From: Candidatus Marinacidobacterales bacterium
GTDB taxonomy: Bacteria; Acidobacteriota; Vicinamibacteria; Marinacidobacterales; SMYC01
Assembly: GCA_965237955.1 (NCBI GenBank)
Contig: OZ250169.1
Span: 1,088,001 to 1,152,000, forward strand
Direction of reading: 5' to 3'
DNA: 64,000 nucleotides
In this document: positions 1,734 through 57,228 of the stretch, piece after piece
How the letters are laid out: each line of letters opens with the position of its first letter
Position numbering within the stretch: the first letter of the stretch is position 1
Notes under the pieces: model-generated
Database searches by the model: none
Told to the model about the DNA's origin: nothing
The model's input: the letters and a program-made list of their open reading frames with translations, nothing else
Position numbers and translations under genes: made by a program

Positions 1734-1893
1734 TGTGCTCCGCAAAAAGTCGATCCAGCGTTGATTGCACGGTTTAGACCTGCCATGATCGGCTGCTTCG
1801 CCCCGGTCGACCGGTGGGCTCCATCACGATTACCGGTTGTCACGCATCGCCTGATGGTCTATTTCAAAAGGGGCCGAGTTTTGGCACAGGACG
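1734..1893. mobile_element. Short element with a family-D end (TGTGCTCCGCAAAAAGTC) on the left and a family-A end (..TTTTGGCACAGGACG) on the right
   Basis: Left motif recurs at 34384 and ~42238; right motif is the family-A TIR. Confidence 0.6.
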
Positions 1894-1945
1894 GGATTGC
1901 TCAATTCGCTTTATGGTCTTGTCCTTCATTGGCTCCCTCCTCCGT

Positions 1946-2422
1946 TTATGACTCGGTGTGAGAGATGACCTGGTAAGAGCCCGAGTCCGGCCTTCCATCT
2001 TCCTGGAGGTTGGAGATCTCGAGAGTATATGAGCCGGCTGGTTCTTCTTCCGCGGTGATTCGAGTAGGCTTCGCTGGCGGTTCACCGATTGAGGACGCGA
2101 CAACGTCTTCGCACGCATTCCTCTGGGAAAGCCGACAATTACATTGGCCACGATAAATGACGGCGTCAAGCCTGTTGGAATCTCGATTCCAGTCAACAAC
2201 GGCCTCGATGTCACCTAAGGCTGTCGTGCTGAACGAGAAGAACCTAAGGAAATCACAGTCTAACGTTTGTGAGGACTCGAGAGTGCCAATGTTGAAACTA
2301 CCGTCAGCTATCACCCTGCTTACATCGAAAACTGGCGCCACTGCGCCAGTAGGTGGCTTGCAGTGAGTCATCGCCAAGAAGGCAGCTGCAACGATCACTT
2401 TCTTTTTCGGCATTCGGCTCAT
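1946..2422 (-). CDS. Hypothetical exported protein / lipoprotein
   Basis: MSRMPKKKVIVAAAFLAMTHC signal-like N-terminus; the upstream ORF extension overlaps IS3 DNA and is discarded. Confidence 0.55.
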   Translation of the reverse strand: MSRMPKKKVIVAAAFLAMTHCKPPTGAVAPVFDVSRVIADGSFNIGTLESSQTLDCDFLRFFSFSTTALGDIEAVVDWNRDSNRLDAVIYRGQCNCRLSQRNACEDVVASSIGEPPAKPTRITAEEEPAGSYTLEISNLQEDGRPDSGSYQVISHTES

Positions 2423-2601
2423 CCAACCTAAGTGGTGTTTCTTAAGCGGCCAAGTCTCAATCTTCGGCATTCGGGCGTCAAGCATATCAATACTGGACTG
2501 GAAAAGAACCAGGCGCAGGCCAAGCCACAGTTGACGGCGATCCCCTACGCGGAAAGCCTGAAGGAGTGTGAGACGAACAAAGCCAAGTTCCAGGATTGGT
2601 G

Positions 2602-3096
2602 TGAACCGCCCCGGGGTTTCCGGAGACTGTTTTAGTTGAGTCTCGCCATCTCTAGCGAGCCTTCCTGCGACCGATAGTAGTTCATCTCGTACTCGACCGG
2701 GGGGACATTTCCGATCGGCTCCAAGAGTCGTTGCGTGTTGTACCAATGCACCCACTCGAGGGTGGCGCACTCGACGTCCTCGAGACCACGCCAGGGCCCG
2801 CGTCGCCGGATCACCTCGGTTTTGTAGAGGCCGATGATGGATTCAGCCAAAGCGTTATCGTAGGAGTCGCCTCGGCTGCCGACGGACGGCTCAATGCCCG
2901 CCTCGGCGAGCCGCTCGGTGTAACGGATCGAGACGTACTGCACGCCGCGATCGCTGTGGTGCACCAATGGATCTTCTGGGTCTAGTCGGCGCTCGTGTAG
3001 CGCCTGCTCCAACGCATCGAGAGCGATGCCGGCAGTCAACGATGTCGTCGCTCGCCAGCCGACGATGAGTCGAGCGAAGACGTCGATGACGAAGGC
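2602..3096 (-). mobile_element. IS3-family remnant (right end plus orfB C-terminus)
   Basis: End [48 protein letters not shown]; cut by IS6. Confidence 0.9.
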
Positions 3097-54406: not shown

Positions 54407-54410
54407 GACG

Positions 54411-56966
54411 ATGACTGCACCCGACGCACAACTACTGAGCCAGGACGCTTATGCAGAAGTCACCGCTGCCAACCTTCTCGAACGTCTCGACCTCGAGCGG
54501 TTGGATATATCCAACCGCCTAGCGGTCGATCCGAAGCGACGAGCTGATCTAGGGCAGTTCTTCACTCCAGCAGGCGTGGCCCACTTCATGGCTGCCATGC
54601 TGCTGGTTCCAAAGCCGCCGAAAGAACTCCGCATCCTCGACGCCGGAGGAGGGAGCGGCATCCTCACAGCCGCGGCCGTCGCCGAGTTCTGCGCTAGGCC
54701 GAAGCCAAAGCGGCCCCATGCGTTGCACGCCACGGTCTGGGAGATCGACGAGTTGCTCTCCAGGGACTTAGCCCGCACCTTCGAACACTGCCGAGTAGCT
54801 TGCGACGAAGCAGGAGTTCGATTCACTGGAGAACTCCGCCAAGAGAACTTCATCCTAGGTGCCGCCGACCTGGTCGGCGGTGGTGGACTCCTTACCCTGG
54901 GGTGCCCGCGCTTCCACGTGGTAATCATGAACCCGCCCTACCGCAAGCTCAGAAGCGACAGCGCCGAGCGCGAACGCATGAGCTCGGTTGGAATCGAAAC
55001 CAGCAACCTCTACTCCGCCTTCGTCTGGCTCGCACTTGAGCTCCTTGAGGACGGCGGTGAACTCGTGACGATTACGCCGCGCAGCTTCATGAACGGGTCC
55101 TACTTCCGCCCGTTTCGTCAGGCGCTCTCCCGCACGCTCGCTTTCCGCCGCGTTCACGTCTACGACGCCCGCGATGTCGCCTTCGTCGGCGACGCTGTGC
55201 TCCAGGAGAACGTCATCTTCCACGGCGTCCGAGGAGGTGCCCGCAGGAAGGTCAGGATCACAACCTCGCTTGGTCCGGCCGACGCCGGTTTAGCTGAGCG
55301 GACCATCGACCCGGCTGAGCTGATCCTTCCGAGCGACCCGAAGTGCGTGCTGCATCTCGTTCCCGACGAGACCGACGCTCGGATCGCTGAGCAGATGCGG
55401 GCATTGCCGCACACGCTCTTAGACCTTGGCGTTTCGGTCTCTACAGGCCGCGTGGTCGGTTTCCGGGCCAAGGAACGCCTGCATGCAGCAGCAAGAGAAG
55501 GAGATGCGCCCCTAATCTTCCCCAGGCACTTCGCACATGGGTTCGTGACTTGGCCAAAGGCGGCGGGCTCGAAACCGAACGCCTTGGCCGTGTCCGGCCA
55601 CGATGACGACCTCCTGCTTCCCACAGGTTGGTACGTCTTGATCAATCGCTTCAGCGCGAAGGAGGAGAAGCGGCGCGTGGTCGCAGCGCTCTACGATCCT
55701 GCGCGCATCAACGCTGAAGGCGTTGCCTTCGACAACAAGTTGAACGTCCTGCACTGTGACGACGCCGGTCTGTCCGAAGACCTAGCCAAGGGGCTCGCGG
55801 TCTTCCTGAACAGCACGGCGATCGACGCCTACTTCCGCCAGTTCAGTGGACACACTCAGGTCAATGCTGGCGATCTGCGCTCGCTGCGCTTCCCAAACGC
55901 CGGTGAGCTCAAGCGACTAGGCCGCCGCATCGGTCGCTCGATGCCAACGCAGGACGAGATCGATCAACTAATCAGAGAGGAGGTTCCCGCCATGAATGAA
56001 GGAGACGACCCGGTAGCAGTGAAACGAAGGGTTCAGGCCGCCGAAAGTATCCTGAAAGCCCTGGGGGCACCGAAGGGACAGCGCAACGAACGATCGGCCC
56101 TCACCCTTCTCGGGTTGCTCGACCTTGCTCCTATGGACGCATGGTCCGCAACCAGCGCACCGCTCCGCGGTGTCACTGAACTCATGGACTGGATGGCCGC
56201 GAACTACGGCAAGCAGTACGCACCCAACACGCGCGAGACGATCCGCCGCTTCACCCTTCACCAGTTCATCGAGATGGGTTTGGTCCTGCTCAACCCGGAC
56301 GATCCCAAGCGGCCTCCGAACAGCCCGAAGAACGTCTACCAGATCGAACCCTCGGCGCTCAAGCTGCTCCAGTGCTTCGAGACCGACGAGTGGGACGGTA
56401 ACTTGGCCAGCTATCTCAAGTCGATGGAGGGAAAAAACCGCCTTCGCGAGAAGGCTCGGCAGATGGAGTGCATCCCCATCACTCTTCCGGACGGCCAGAC
56501 GCTCGAACTCACGGCCGGCGGCCAGAACATCCTCGTCAAAGAGATCGTTGAGCAATTTGCGCCGCGCTTTACGCCCGGCGGCTACGTGGTCTATGTCGGC
56601 GACACCGGCGAGAAGCATCTGTTCTACTATGTCGATTATCTGAAGGGCTTGGGCGTCGAGATCGACCCGCACGGCAAGATGCCGGACGTGGTGATCCATC
56701 ACGTCGAGCGCAACTGGCTCATTCTCATCGAGGCCGTCACCTCGCACGGCCCGGTGAACATCCTGCGCCACAACCATCTCAAGGATCTCTTTGCGGGATC
56801 AACGGCTGGGCTCGTCTTCGTAACGACATTCCTCGATCGTGCGGCGATGCGCGAGTACCTGCCCGAGATTGCCTGGGAAACGGAAGTCTGGGTCGCCGAC
56901 GCACCCGGGCACCTCATCCACTTCAACGGCGAGCGCTTCCTCGGGCCGTACAAGAGCGGCGAGTAG
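54411..56966 (+). CDS. Fused N6-adenine methyltransferase and BsuBI/PstI-family restriction endonuclease
   Basis: LGQFFTP, ILDAGGGSG, NPPY, FSGHTQVNAGDL; then YAPNTRETIRR, HGKMPDVV, LIEAVTSHGP, IAWETEVW, HFNGERFLGPY. Confidence 0.92.
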   Translation: MTAPDAQLLSQDAYAEVTAANLLERLDLERLDISNRLAVDPKRRADLGQFFTPAGVAHFMAAMLLVPKPPKELRILDAGGGSGILTAAAVAEFCARPKPKRPHALHATVWEIDELLSRDLARTFEHCRVACDEAGVRFTGELRQENFILGAADLVGGGGLLTLGCPRFHVVIMNPPYRKLRSDSAERERMSSVGIETSNLYSAFVWLALELLEDGGELVTITPRSFMNGSYFRPFRQALSRTLAFRRVHVYDARDVAFVGDAVLQENVIFHGVRGGARRKVRITTSLGPADAGLAERTIDPAELILPSDPKCVLHLVPDETDARIAEQMRALPHTLLDLGVSVSTGRVVGFRAKERLHAAAREGDAPLIFPRHFAHGFVTWPKAAGSKPNALAVSGHDDDLLLPTGWYVLINRFSAKEEKRRVVAALYDPARINAEGVAFDNKLNVLHCDDAGLSEDLAKGLAVFLNSTAIDAYFRQFSGHTQVNAGDLRSLRFPNAGELKRLGRRIGRSMPTQDEIDQLIREEVPAMNEGDDPVAVKRRVQAAESILKALGAPKGQRNERSALTLLGLLDLAPMDAWSATSAPLRGVTELMDWMAANYGKQYAPNTRETIRRFTLHQFIEMGLVLLNPDDPKRPPNSPKNVYQIEPSALKLLQCFETDEWDGNLASYLKSMEGKNRLREKARQMECIPITLPDGQTLELTAGGQNILVKEIVEQFAPRFTPGGYVVYVGDTGEKHLFYYVDYLKGLGVEIDPHGKMPDVVIHHVERNWLILIEAVTSHGPVNILRHNHLKDLFAGSTAGLVFVTTFLDRAAMREYLPEIAWETEVWVADAPGHLIHFNGERFLGPYKSGE

Positions 56967-57093
56967 CCATGCTGCTCGCACAGACCTCATGGACAATTGC
57001 GAGCAGGTTTTCGACGAGCCCGTGGTGTGGCGACCGCGCGTGAAGATTCGCAGCGATGGCAACTCGCTGCTCGATTCGCAGCGCTCCTGACCC

Positions 57094-57228
57094 CGTCCTG
57101 TGCCAAAACTCGGACAGCCACGACATCCCCAAGCGCCGGCCTACGGCCCTTGGCCCGGTCGCAAACACAGACACTTAAGTTGCTGATTTATGGCCTATTT
57201 CAAAAGAGCCTAGTTTTGGCACAGGACG
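57094..57228. mobile_element. Family-A MITE (135 bp), copy 2
   Basis: Inverted near-copy of 40613-40746. Confidence 0.9.

Follow-up and report, generated by a model that had tools for sequence, protein, structure and literature searches.

How does an insertion sequence (IS) come to lie in its targets without a target-site duplication (TSD) and with the same polar motif beside both of its ends? This question is raised by an IS family, here called family A, in the window, a 64-kb stretch of DNA. TSDs are regarded as a footprint that all DDE transposition leaves; IS annotation tools rely on them to place boundaries, and a missing TSD is usually attributed to later decay.

Family A and its copies in the window

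Family A is an rve/DDE insertion sequence of 1.43 kb with inverted ends of approximately 100 bp and tips 5'-CGT...ACG-3', which read CGTCCTGTGCC in this genome. The full-length element codes for a DDE transposase alone (356 aa, one ORF, intact D-D-E triad). This protein scored 34.6 bits against Pfam rve_3 (cut-off 26.5) and 34.5 bits against HTH_32 (cut-off 33.7), and D178, D244, and E279, spaced D-(66)-D-(35)-E, were invariant in eight sequences of relatives (40-63% identity). With an integrase core and the D, D, E triad, the transposase belongs to the rve/DDE (retroviral-integrase-like) superfamily.

The genome is extremely IS-dense, with 974 matching segments. An open frame of at least 340 aa was kept in 20 of its 26 full-length copies. 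Copy 1 of the window differed at 3 of 1430 bases from a copy located 105 kb away (G000 1005668-1007097), and both were without a TSD. We took this near identity and the open frames as signs of recency of the copies and counted them for the explanation favored below. Family-A ends are also carried by non-autonomous riders, namely, MITEs (132, 315, and 390 bp) and a serine-recombinase element of 3.4 kb, which encodes DUF2924 and a Resolvase/Recombinase-domain protein. A copy-out-paste-in IS would form a circular intermediate with abutted ends; the genome contains no fossil of such a junction with fewer than 20 nt as a spacer.

The earlier note on this DNA had located 17 family-A ends in the window; all were confirmed at their coordinates, and no further end was found there. 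The features are as follows (strand in parentheses).

1854..1893 (.): fragment (~40 nt) of a right-type family-A end, flanked outward by GGATTGCT
21563..22990 (+): IS 'T' copy (T positions 2-1429), cut short at GACGT^ by copy 1 (left end)
22991..24420 (-): family-A copy 1, 1430 bp, outward flanks ACGT / GGGG, without a TSD
23221..24291 (-): transposase ORF, 356 aa, HTH_32 and rve_3
29059..30485 (+): family-A copy 2, 1427 bp, broken transposase frame
30778..30863 (.): right-type end fragment, ~86 nt, flank GGATCGCG
33699..33752 (.): left-type end, family-A homology of 54 nt only, then another element class
36371..37796 (-): family-A copy 3, 1426 bp, broken transposase frame, flanks GGGTCAGG / GGATTGCG
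37797..39172 (+): IS 'T' copy without the initial 560 nt (T positions 561-1936), adjoining the right end of copy 3
40613..40746 (.): MITE of 134 bp with family-A ends, without a TSD
43328..43594 (-): family-A copy, first 267 nt only, cut short at GCCTCC^ by copy 4 (left end)
43596..45023 (-): family-A copy 4, 1428 bp, open frame of 381 aa
45345..45430 (.): left-type end fragment, ~86 nt, flank CGACGCCG
57094..57228 (.): MITE of 135 bp with family-A ends, flanks GGGTCAGG / CGGTCGGC, without a TSD

The left end of copy 2 is located at a recurrent hot spot, CCGCCACCC^, within the 3.4-kb A2 element. The remainder of the family-A copy at 43328..43594 was absent from the far side of copy 4.

A polar motif flanks the ends

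Read outward, the flank starts with GG at 13 of the 17 ends, with CG at three, and with AC at one; position 3 is a purine at all 17 and position 4 is T at 12, exactly as previously counted. The genome-wide outward logo, which the earlier note had proposed to build, reads G-G-R-T-C (513 ends collected by a 17-nt core match with up to 2 mismatches; 470 distinct 20-nt flanks). Numbered inward, with -1 as the terminal base of that note, the composition is C 0.99 at -1, C 0.76 at -2, C 0.89 at -3, C 0.61/T 0.26 at -4, A 0.68 at -5, and G 0.49 at -6. At -2 to -5, the relative entropy amounts to 0.72, 1.17, 0.47, and 0.91 bits; conservation falls off gradually from -1 to -7, and background composition is reached by -10. 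No such flank bias was seen at 1577 genomic CGTCCTG sites outside family A, which served as a control.

A matching logo was obtained at 86 ends of 43 full-length copies in other genomes. Distant relatives (approximately 47-59% amino-acid identity) retain the CGT tip and the GAYCC flank; 18 distinct ends of relatives, from unrelated metagenomes and other acidobacterial families, keep the tip CGT and have the flank logo G.61 (C/G) A.67 (T/C) C1.00 C.72. Tips in relatives read CGTATGG, CGTAAGG, CGTAGGG, and CGTC(C/G/T)TG. The flank motif is real and polar.

Absence of TSDs and independence of the two flanks

The four full copies and two MITEs of the window lack direct flanking repeats, as had been noted, and so do the 26 full-length copies of the genome. 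A TSD was present in 0 of 147 elements with both ends identified (96 paired elements in this genome, 43 full-length copies in other genomes, and eight distant relatives); two copies that are 99.4% alike in another genome are among these. Direct repeats of length 3-6 at all offsets 0-8 were at the shuffled level in the 96 paired elements. Anchored repeats of 8-300 nt with at least 85% identity occurred in 4 of 139 elements; all were 8-10 nt long with inconsistent offsets, which is approximately the chance level for 49 offset pairs. On geometric grounds, a polar 5-nt motif mirrored at both tips cannot sit within a duplication shorter than 10 bp.

The left and right flanks of one element were directly shown to be statistically independent and unrelated, with no correlation at outward positions 1-8 or 6-17. 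Contiguous flanks were found in 0 of 65 testable elements (0/46 and 0/19). At the one palindromic site, GACCT-ACC-AGGTC, both half-sites were used by different copies, three on one side and one on the other. Of these four ends, one belongs to the full-length copy at 893722 and is paired with another end, the flank of which is unrelated; the remaining three lack a partner.

The motif belongs to the target

Comparisons with uninterrupted paralogues directly showed that the GAYCC flank is borne by the target and lies outside the element because these paralogues already have GAYCC followed by (C/A)GT. A total of 152 distinct uninterrupted sites give the logo G.46 A.66 C.62 C.86 C.69 ^ C.42/A.28 G.56 T.53, which is flat from there to +24; no second half-site was found in them at any fixed spacing of 0-24. 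Among 201 ends with at least two agreeing uninterrupted paralogues, homology extended up to the end base of the earlier note at 92, 1-5 nt beyond it at 75, and stopped short of it at 32, and two further ends were diverged family-A ends. All of these comparisons were made in repeated DNA; seven pairs lie in unique DNA. Since the islands consist entirely of mobile DNA, no sister genome yielded an empty allele.

Some sites were used repeatedly. One multi-copy site showed eight events among approximately 43 copies, by full-length, 297-, 316-, 389-, 732-, and 3519-bp elements, and identical flank-end junctions recur at several loci with differing element bodies. Repeated DNA, the source of all empty sites, is also where later rearrangement is likeliest.

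Targets are truncated at the junction

IS T served as a reporter. It is young and 1936 bp long, with 20 full copies that are 99.3-100% identical, all with CTWAG flanks. Six family-A junctions are located in it, at T positions 268, 561 (twice), 1125, 1240, and 1429, and every one truncates T: the rest of T beyond the junction was found in none of the six, and no reciprocal T fragment was found in the genome. Sites 1125, 1240, and 1429 read GACCG^AGCTT, GACCC^AGCCC, and GACGT^AGTAG. In the window, contigs from four public runs exit exactly past 22990 into uninterrupted T sequence. Two other TG..CA elements in T were both simple insertions, with TSDs of 4 and 7 bp. The truncation of targets at family-A junctions is shown directly.

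The two flanks of an element were linked in only 3-4 of the 65 testable elements. In another genome (L026; 27 paralogues), both flanks lie in T, and T 913-1618 (706 bp) is missing; in a further case (L021, also another genome), family A lies within family A, and 1151 bp of the target copy is missing. In the window, T(2-1429)|copy 1 ... copy 3|T(561-1936) forms an 869/870-bp overlap of T around a 14.8-kb block (1 nt is ambiguous at the T/copy 3 junction); T copies are 99.5-100% alike, and the overlap is therefore indistinguishable from two separate T copies. In a 327-bp overlap case, only 164 nt occur on both sides, at 96% identity, and two different target copies may be involved. The pattern of Ngan et al. 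(2024), in which a TSD-less IS lies between duplicated segments or replaces a deleted one, was found in L026, L021, and the T overlap, irrespective of whether these arose in one step.

Possible mechanism of insertion

We give an even chance to the explanation that each end was joined separately to a polar 8-bp half-site, GAYCC^(C/A)GT, which mimics the element's own flank-tip junction, with movement coupled to deletion or duplication. The earlier note had suggested that each end picks its own polar target by one-ended or deletion-coupled transposition. The target-borne flank, the independent flanks, the lack of contiguous flanks (0/65), the truncation of T (6/6), and the 706- and 1151-bp replacements fit this suggestion, and the mechanism is what we infer from them. 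The transposase pocket that holds the donor flank at end cleavage (..ACG^GGRTC, transferred strand) may also select the attacked strand, such that the target would resemble the cleavage site. Rather than acting as a concerted, closely staggered pair, the two strand transfers would hit separate half-sites at a distance of hundreds of bases or more, or different stretches. The intervening DNA would then be lost, as in the 706- and 1151-bp cases, or doubled, as in the 869/870- and 327-bp overlaps, and no short duplication would arise. The riders (MITEs and the 3.4-kb element) may move likewise. Points against this explanation are the origin of all empty sites in repeated DNA, the lack of an empty allele and of a fossil circle junction, the low number of elements with linked flanks (3-4/65), the possible derivation of the 869/870- and 327-bp overlaps from separate target copies, the lack of a precedent known to us, and the adjacent deletions documented for IS150.

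Alternatively, an ordinary concerted insertion with a short TSD may have come first, with frequent adjacent deletions, inversions, and inter-copy recombination later replacing both flanks until no pristine insertion was left. Adjacent deletions and recombination between ISs are described as the common, documented causes of missing TSDs (PMC11708052), and the IS density with its 974 matching segments and the recurrent junctions with differing bodies are in keeping with such a history. However, we consider it unlikely: all 147 elements lack TSDs, including the pair three mismatches apart and the two copies 99.4% alike elsewhere, while other IS types in T keep theirs (2/2). Moreover, the step that forms the deletion would still need to set a polar, non-palindromic motif against each tip, which is unattainable by concerted staggered attack, and the motif is kept in distant relatives from unrelated samples. 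It is more doubtful still that the element was captured into pre-existing DNA breaks during rearrangements, leaving the target uncut by the transposase and no TSD. Capture was proposed for an IS481-family element, a new copy of which lay without a TSD at the center of a 59,943-bp duplication, and for IS5, which was found with a large deletion (PMC11708052). The Dup-IS-Dup-like and replacement structures described above look alike, but an 8-bp motif is not expected at random breaks, nor is the use of the same multi-copy sites by different element types (8 times, ~43 copies).

We regard as improbable a site-specific recombination in which a recombinase, such as the large serine recombinase of the 3.4-kb relative with family-A ends, swaps flanks at a shared CG core (GAYCC-CG-T...). 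CG is present on both junctions of every element, and uninterrupted targets are similar to flank plus tip; however, this similarity extends over just 3 tip nucleotides, which are few for a recombinase half-site, it was the DDE transposase alone that led to the distant relatives sharing tip and flank, and full-length family A encodes only this enzyme, open in 20/26 copies. The option of the earlier note that insertion is blunt, with a 0-bp stagger, and occurs in a quasi-palindrome (GAYCC|GGRTC) is very improbable. Mirror-image flanks without a TSD are expected of such a mode, the empty-site comparison covers repeated rather than unique DNA, and Spy elements are a case of DDE insertion without a TSD, at AAA|TTT (PMC4122938). 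Nevertheless, the 152 uninterrupted sites read (C/A)GT and then background rather than GGRTC, with G at 0.14 in the first and 0.10 in the third position after GAYCC. Exact inverted 5-mers within 40 nt downstream occurred at 12 of 119 sites vs 5.6 expected, and the four cases with a spacer of 3 represent a single target family. Contiguous flanks were absent (0/65), and T sites 1125, 1240, and 1429 are also without GGRTC after the motif. Blunt insertion is, thus, largely refuted for repeated-DNA targets. The gradual decay of conservation from -1 to -7 might indicate that the conserved flank is the outermost inverted repeat, with a normal TSD further out, but we assign this a negligible probability: the flank is present in uninterrupted paralogues, no direct repeat was found at any offset 0-8, and the empty-site comparisons refute it.

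Comparison with known systems

IS481-family elements have terminal inverted repeats with TGT/ACA and TSDs of 4-15 bp. Family A resembles them in its single-ORF rve/DDE transposase of approximately 350 aa without a programmed frameshift, and IS481 was its best NCBIfam match, although its score for NF033577 was 84.3 bits vs a cut-off of 224. It differs in its CGT/ACG tips and in the short TSD, found in 0/139 close and 0/8 distant elements. For an IS481-family element of P. fluorescens SBW25, Ngan et al. (2024; PMC11708052) describe insertion sites with a common conserved upstream sequence and four older copies with a 4-bp flanking repeat, which was first taken as a TSD and is in fact element-borne. 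The TSD-less event reported there is a single case, whereas family A has a TSD in 0/147 and the polar motif at both ends.

Family A shares with the IS3 family (IS911, IS150, and IS2) the rve/DDE domain and the D-(66)-D-(35)-E spacing; this was the second-best NCBIfam match (NF033516), with 73.2 bits vs a cut-off of 160. IS3-family elements have two overlapping ORFs joined by a -1 frameshift, TG..CA ends, and a 3-5-bp TSD, whereas family A has a single ORF, no frameshifted orfAB, CGT..ACG tips, and no 3-5-bp TSD. IS911 can undergo one-ended events directed to sequences like its own ends; in contrast, the target look-alike of family A is oriented like the incoming end, which replaces it instead of abutting it head to head. 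For IS150, adjacent deletions after ordinary insertion that leave no TSD are well documented (PMC11708052).

The transposase of IS30 belongs to another family. IS30 hot spots are palindromic and its insertions have a TSD, while each family-A end adjoins a polar half-site. IS30 is a copy-out-paste-in IS that targets hot spots or sites beside its own inverted repeats, with deletions, inversions, and cointegrates (PMC9333248). Spy transposons, which are eukaryotic and IS5/PIF-related, combine TIRs and a DDE enzyme with no TSD and are inserted precisely between AAA and TTT (PMC4122938). Family A also has TIRs and a DDE enzyme without a TSD; however, the Spy target is left intact, whereas the uninterrupted family-A target has one half-site and becomes truncated, and both half-sites back to back in an otherwise intact target were not found for family A. 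IS200/IS605 and IS91 elements use HUH single-strand enzymes, have a polar tetra- or pentanucleotide target beside one end, and lack TSDs and TIRs. Family A is similar in its polar motif and lack of a TSD, but has a DDE enzyme, long TIRs, and a mirror-image motif at both ends.

Significance

The present study describes a whole IS family without TSDs, known from several genera and from distant relatives in unrelated samples and amounting to hundreds of copies, that has a mirror-image polar motif instead, in a genome in which other IS types behave normally. We tentatively propose, as a possibility still short of probable, that a widespread rve/DDE IS family moves by two uncoupled single-end transfers at 8-bp mimics of its cleavage site, such that every move would be a deletion, duplication, or rearrangement and would never leave a TSD. 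We know of no rve-type IS for which uncoupled strand transfer is the normal mode, and, if true, this mode of transposition would be undescribed for the rve/DDE superfamily. With GAYCC^CGT as a defined motif and 20 transposase genes intact, it can be tested directly at the bench. Family A would then provide a natural, sequence-defined test system for the proposal that IS481-type elements move with large rearrangements (PMC11708052). If its ends act separately, family A would be a built-in generator of deletions and duplications, which would account for the mosaic IS islands of these sponge-associated or marine acidobacteria.

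Results

Family-A element and transposase

Family A is an insertion sequence of approximately 1426–1430 bp with terminal inverted repeats of approximately 100 bp and tips 5'-CGT...ACG-3'. Four full-length copies are present in the window:

22991..24420, minus strand, copy 1, reading frame open
29059..30485, plus strand, copy 2, reading frame broken
36371..37796, minus strand, copy 3, reading frame broken
43596..45023, minus strand, copy 4, reading frame open

The single ORF (356 aa; window 23221-24291, minus strand) encodes a protein with the Pfam domains HTH_32 and rve_3. The NCBIfam models ranked first and second were IS481 (84 bits; cut-off 224) and IS3 (73 bits; cut-off 160). 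Since both scores are below cut-off, family A encodes an rve/DDE transposase that reaches the threshold of neither family. Alignment with seven relatives (40–63% identity) showed D178, D244, and E279 to be invariant, and a PDB sequence search revealed no match at E <= 0.01. The genome contains 26 full-length copies, and in 20 of these the frame is open over 340 aa or more. Copy 1 differs from a copy located 105 kb away at 3 of 1430 positions, while most family-A copies are approximately 92% alike.

Full copies account for a minority of the 513 family-A ends in the genome; the others belong to MITEs (approximately 132, 315, and 390 bp), truncated copies, and a 3.4-kb element. This element has the same terminal 54 nt as family A, encodes a DUF2924 protein and a large serine recombinase (Resolvase and Recombinase domains), and occurs in at least 35 copies (for example, positions 870871-874295 of this genome, G000; a truncated copy lies in locus L005). 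At window end 33699, family-A homology also stops at 54 nt, and the interior is a different repeat. An internal site of the 3.4-kb element, CCGCCACCC^AGTCTGG, was used 8 times, by different elements of the family-A type; downstream of this hot spot lies sequence that resembles a degenerate family-A tip. The same 9-mer, CCGCCACCC, followed by the same downstream sequence, is found at the 3' end of an apparent tRNA gene (GGTTCGAATCC...CCGCCA; G000 126933), a possible sign that a portion of the 3.4-kb element integrated at a tRNA in the past. Elsewhere in the window, 134-nt inverted repeats (40306-40439 and 42644-42777; 97% complementary) enclose approximately 2.5 kb, including a 134-bp family-A MITE; this pair is probably another transposon.

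Ends and flanking motif

The earlier note had located 17 family-A ends in the window and had read a polar motif outward from them. We recovered all 17 at the same positions and no further end in the window. The outward reads began with GG in 13, CG in 3, and AC in 1, with a purine at position 3 in 17/17 and T at position 4 in 12/17, as had been counted. The window spans G000:C1:1088001-1152000. A search of the 8.13-Mb single-contig genome with a 17-nt terminal-repeat core (<=2 mismatches) identified the 513 ends, with 470 distinct 20-nt flanks. Their composition was as follows.

Flank composition at the 513 family-A ends (inward numbering)
-1 (terminal base in the earlier note): C 0.99
-2: C 0.76
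-3: C 0.89
-4: C 0.61 / T 0.26
-5: A 0.68
-6: G 0.49
-10 and farther: background

The genome-wide outward logo is therefore G|G-G-R-T-C. This bias was absent at 1577 genomic CGTCCTG sites outside family A. We concluded that the motif is genuine and far above chance. Two solo end fragments in the window (30766-30866 and 45342-45442; pair I22) are 99% complementary, 14.5 kb apart, and oriented outward-to-outward; they may have been left by an inversion or by the splitting of a MITE.

Origin of the motif in the target

Uninterrupted paralogues of the multi-copy elements that adjoin family-A ends served as a proxy for empty sites. This set consists of repeated DNA throughout, with family-A copies in unique DNA (7 pairs) lying outside it; such copies include G000 168674-170099 and 7919723-7920037. 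Among the 201 ends for which at least two paralogues agreed on the continuation, homology between filled and uninterrupted sites reached the terminal base of the note exactly in 92, extended 1 to 5 nt beyond it in 75, and ended short of it in 32; two of the 201 were diverged family-A ends. The logo of the 152 distinct uninterrupted sites was G.46 A.66 C.62 C.86 C.69, then C.42/A.28, G.56, and T.53, with background to +24. Therefore, GAYCC is native to the target and the element begins with C-G-T, in agreement with the start set by the earlier note. At these 152 sites, (C/A)GT tends to occupy the positions later taken by the tip CGT; the preferred target resembles family A's own flank–tip junction.

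Contigs assembled from four public runs depart from the window exactly after 22990 into uninterrupted target sequence, which independently supports a target-borne flank. These contigs confirmed the left boundary and contained neither an empty allele nor an end-to-end joint; one connected a family-A right end with the left arm at position 76. Comparisons of same-genus genomes for empty alleles (G012 with G005 and G019 with G017) gave scattered matches to mobile DNA only, without synteny, because the elements occupy islands composed solely of mobile DNA.

Absence of a duplication and unlinked ends

The earlier note had found no target-site duplication (TSD) in the window, and this claim extends beyond it: no TSD was found in pairs from this genome, other genomes, or distant relatives. 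In the 96 paired elements of this genome, direct repeats of 3–6 bp at every combination of offsets 0–8 were not above shuffled pairings. When 43 full-length copies from other genomes were added, anchored repeats of 8–300 nt (at least 85% identity) were detected in 4/139, all of 8–10 nt at differing offsets, approximately the number expected by chance for 49 offset pairs. Outward reads from both ends of the same element were not more alike than reads from different elements (positions 1–8 and 6–17), and an inverted correlation of the flanks, as from a palindromic target or a variable tip, was rejected at positions 1–17.

Furthermore, the two flanks were contiguous in a paralogue for 0/46 paired elements of this genome with paralogues on both sides and 0/19 testable copies from other genomes; a narrower test for adjacent paired flanks gave one spurious match in approximately 140 pairs. 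Reciprocal target halves beside other family-A ends yielded a few near-misses elsewhere and none consistent with a TSD, and a genome search for fossil circle junctions with a spacer of <20 nt found none. At the single truly palindromic site, GACCT-ACC-AGGTC, both half-sites were used in different copies (3 vs 1). One of these four ends, which belongs to the full-length copy at 893722, has a partner end, and the flank at that partner is unrelated; the other three ends lack a partner. A weak excess of local palindromes downstream of uninterrupted sites was due to one target family.

IS T, a separate 1936-bp element with inverted ends GGCCGGCG..., was used as a reporter target. Its 20 full copies are distributed chromosome-wide and are 99.3–100% identical, the mark of a very recent burst. 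CT(A/T)AG is present on both sides of every full copy, and so the genome and its assembly retain normal insertion footprints. T contains simple insertions of two TG...CA elements: one of 1564 bp (14 near-full copies; G000 3179231-3180794) has the 4-bp TSD ACGG, and the other, of 2943 bp (37 near-full copies; G000 6846707-6849649), has the 7-bp TSD GCCTGCC. Since two other repeat ends had no inverted end pairs, IS T and its two inserts took the role of control. Six family-A junctions in T were identified, at T positions 268, 561 (two loci), 1125, 1240, and 1429, with native sequences including GACCG^AGCTT, GACCC^AGCCC, and GACGT^AGTAG. These events are recent because the T copies are nearly identical. 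The remainder of T lay across the family-A element at 0/6 junctions, and no T fragment starting at the reciprocal positions was found genome-wide. The T copies in the window occupy 21563-22990 and 37797-39172, and the N-terminal ORF fragment at 22503-23003 is part of T.

The flanks of some elements can be linked. In locus L026 of another genome, both flanks of a full-length copy lie in T, and T 913-1618 is missing relative to 27 paralogues; in its native form, the left site is CACTCC^CGTC. In L021, a full-length copy lies inside another family-A copy, and 1151 bp of the target is missing. In the window, copy 1 adjoins T(2-1429) at its left end, and copy 3 adjoins T(561-1936) at its right end. 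The two T segments overlap by 869/870 bp and enclose a 14.8-kb block delimited by two copies in direct orientation; the T copies are too alike for a true duplication to be distinguished here from two separate T copies. The flanks of a 274-bp MITE (G000 3660278) overlap by 327 bp in 20 paralogues, a weak case because the locus itself shares just 164 nt on both sides (96% identity). A scan to 300 kb for an element between duplicated flanks returned only the T overlap of the window and two implausible cases 154 and 298 kb apart.

Discussion

In an ordinary DDE insertion, the bases adjoining both tips are the duplicated bases. Since family A has a mirror-image motif at both tips, its duplication would have to be palindromic. 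A GGRTC...GAYCC repeat would occupy 10 bp or more, and none was found; therefore, the junctions do not match a concerted staggered cut. A stagger of 0 bp does not fit either because uninterrupted sites do not read GAYCCGGRTC. Furthermore, the 152 uninterrupted sites have no second half-site at any fixed distance up to 24 nt. From this geometry, we infer that the junction-forming reaction reads one half-site per end.

We propose that separate one-end strand transfers at polar half-sites are the likeliest mechanism, a reading that we hold with middling confidence. On the transferred strand, the cleavage site of family A itself reads ..CAGGACG^GGRTC, compared with AC(G/T)^GGRTC for the site that is preferentially attacked. 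In this proposal, the pocket holding the donor flank at cleavage would also choose the attacked strand. The two ends would act separately, at half-sites that may lie hundreds of bases or much farther apart. The intervening DNA would be lost or doubled according to the order of the sites, and a short duplication would never arise. The earlier note had offered two alternatives. The first, that each end picks its own polar target, fits the unlinked flanks and truncated targets, with the mechanism itself remaining our reading of them. The second, blunt insertion into a quasi-palindrome, fails at the uninterrupted sites, which do not have the GAYCCGGRTC reading, and we consider it highly improbable.

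As another explanation, ordinary insertion may have come first, followed by adjacent deletions and recombination, which we regard as unlikely. The capture of elements into pre-existing breaks appears more doubtful still, and a site-specific recombinase that swaps flanks at the shared CG is very unlikely. A longer terminal inverted repeat with a TSD lying outside it has a negligible probability; it was ruled out by the empty-site paralogues, which carry the flank, and by the negative offset scans. Movement without a TSD accompanied by rearrangement has a likeness in the IS481 family: a single published observation concerns a copy that arose amid a 60-kb duplication without a TSD (PMC11708052). 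In family A, however, such movement would be general and would be linked to a defined motif.

We found no description of family A in the literature searched, the coverage of which did not extend to ISfinder. The element is shared, at approximately 92% nucleotide identity, by genomes that differ in genus and represent two families of the order (G008, G012, G015, G017, and G019; L012-L091). It was not found in G005, of the same genus as G012, and in G019 its ends cluster in one region of approximately 125 kb. This distribution suggests horizontal spread within a shared habitat.

The same flank logo was obtained from the 43 full-length copies (86 ends) that belong to other metagenome-assembled genomes of the order. 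Relatives of the transposase number in the thousands (at least 7997 at E <= 1e-10 among 8000 scored candidates). Those approximately 47–59% identical, from other acidobacterial families and unrelated metagenomes, keep the tip CGT...G(T)GCC(A/G)AAA. Their ends in metagenome loci were located by a scan for the tip motif, automatic detection of terminal inverted repeats having given only a few loci. The flank logo of 18 distinct ends was G.61, C.50/G.33, A.67, T.44/C.33, C 1.00, and C.72, and a TSD was present in 0/8 distant elements with both ends identified, including two copies 99.4% alike and 3.8 kb apart. The CGT tip, the flank motif, and the absence of a TSD are a trait of the family.
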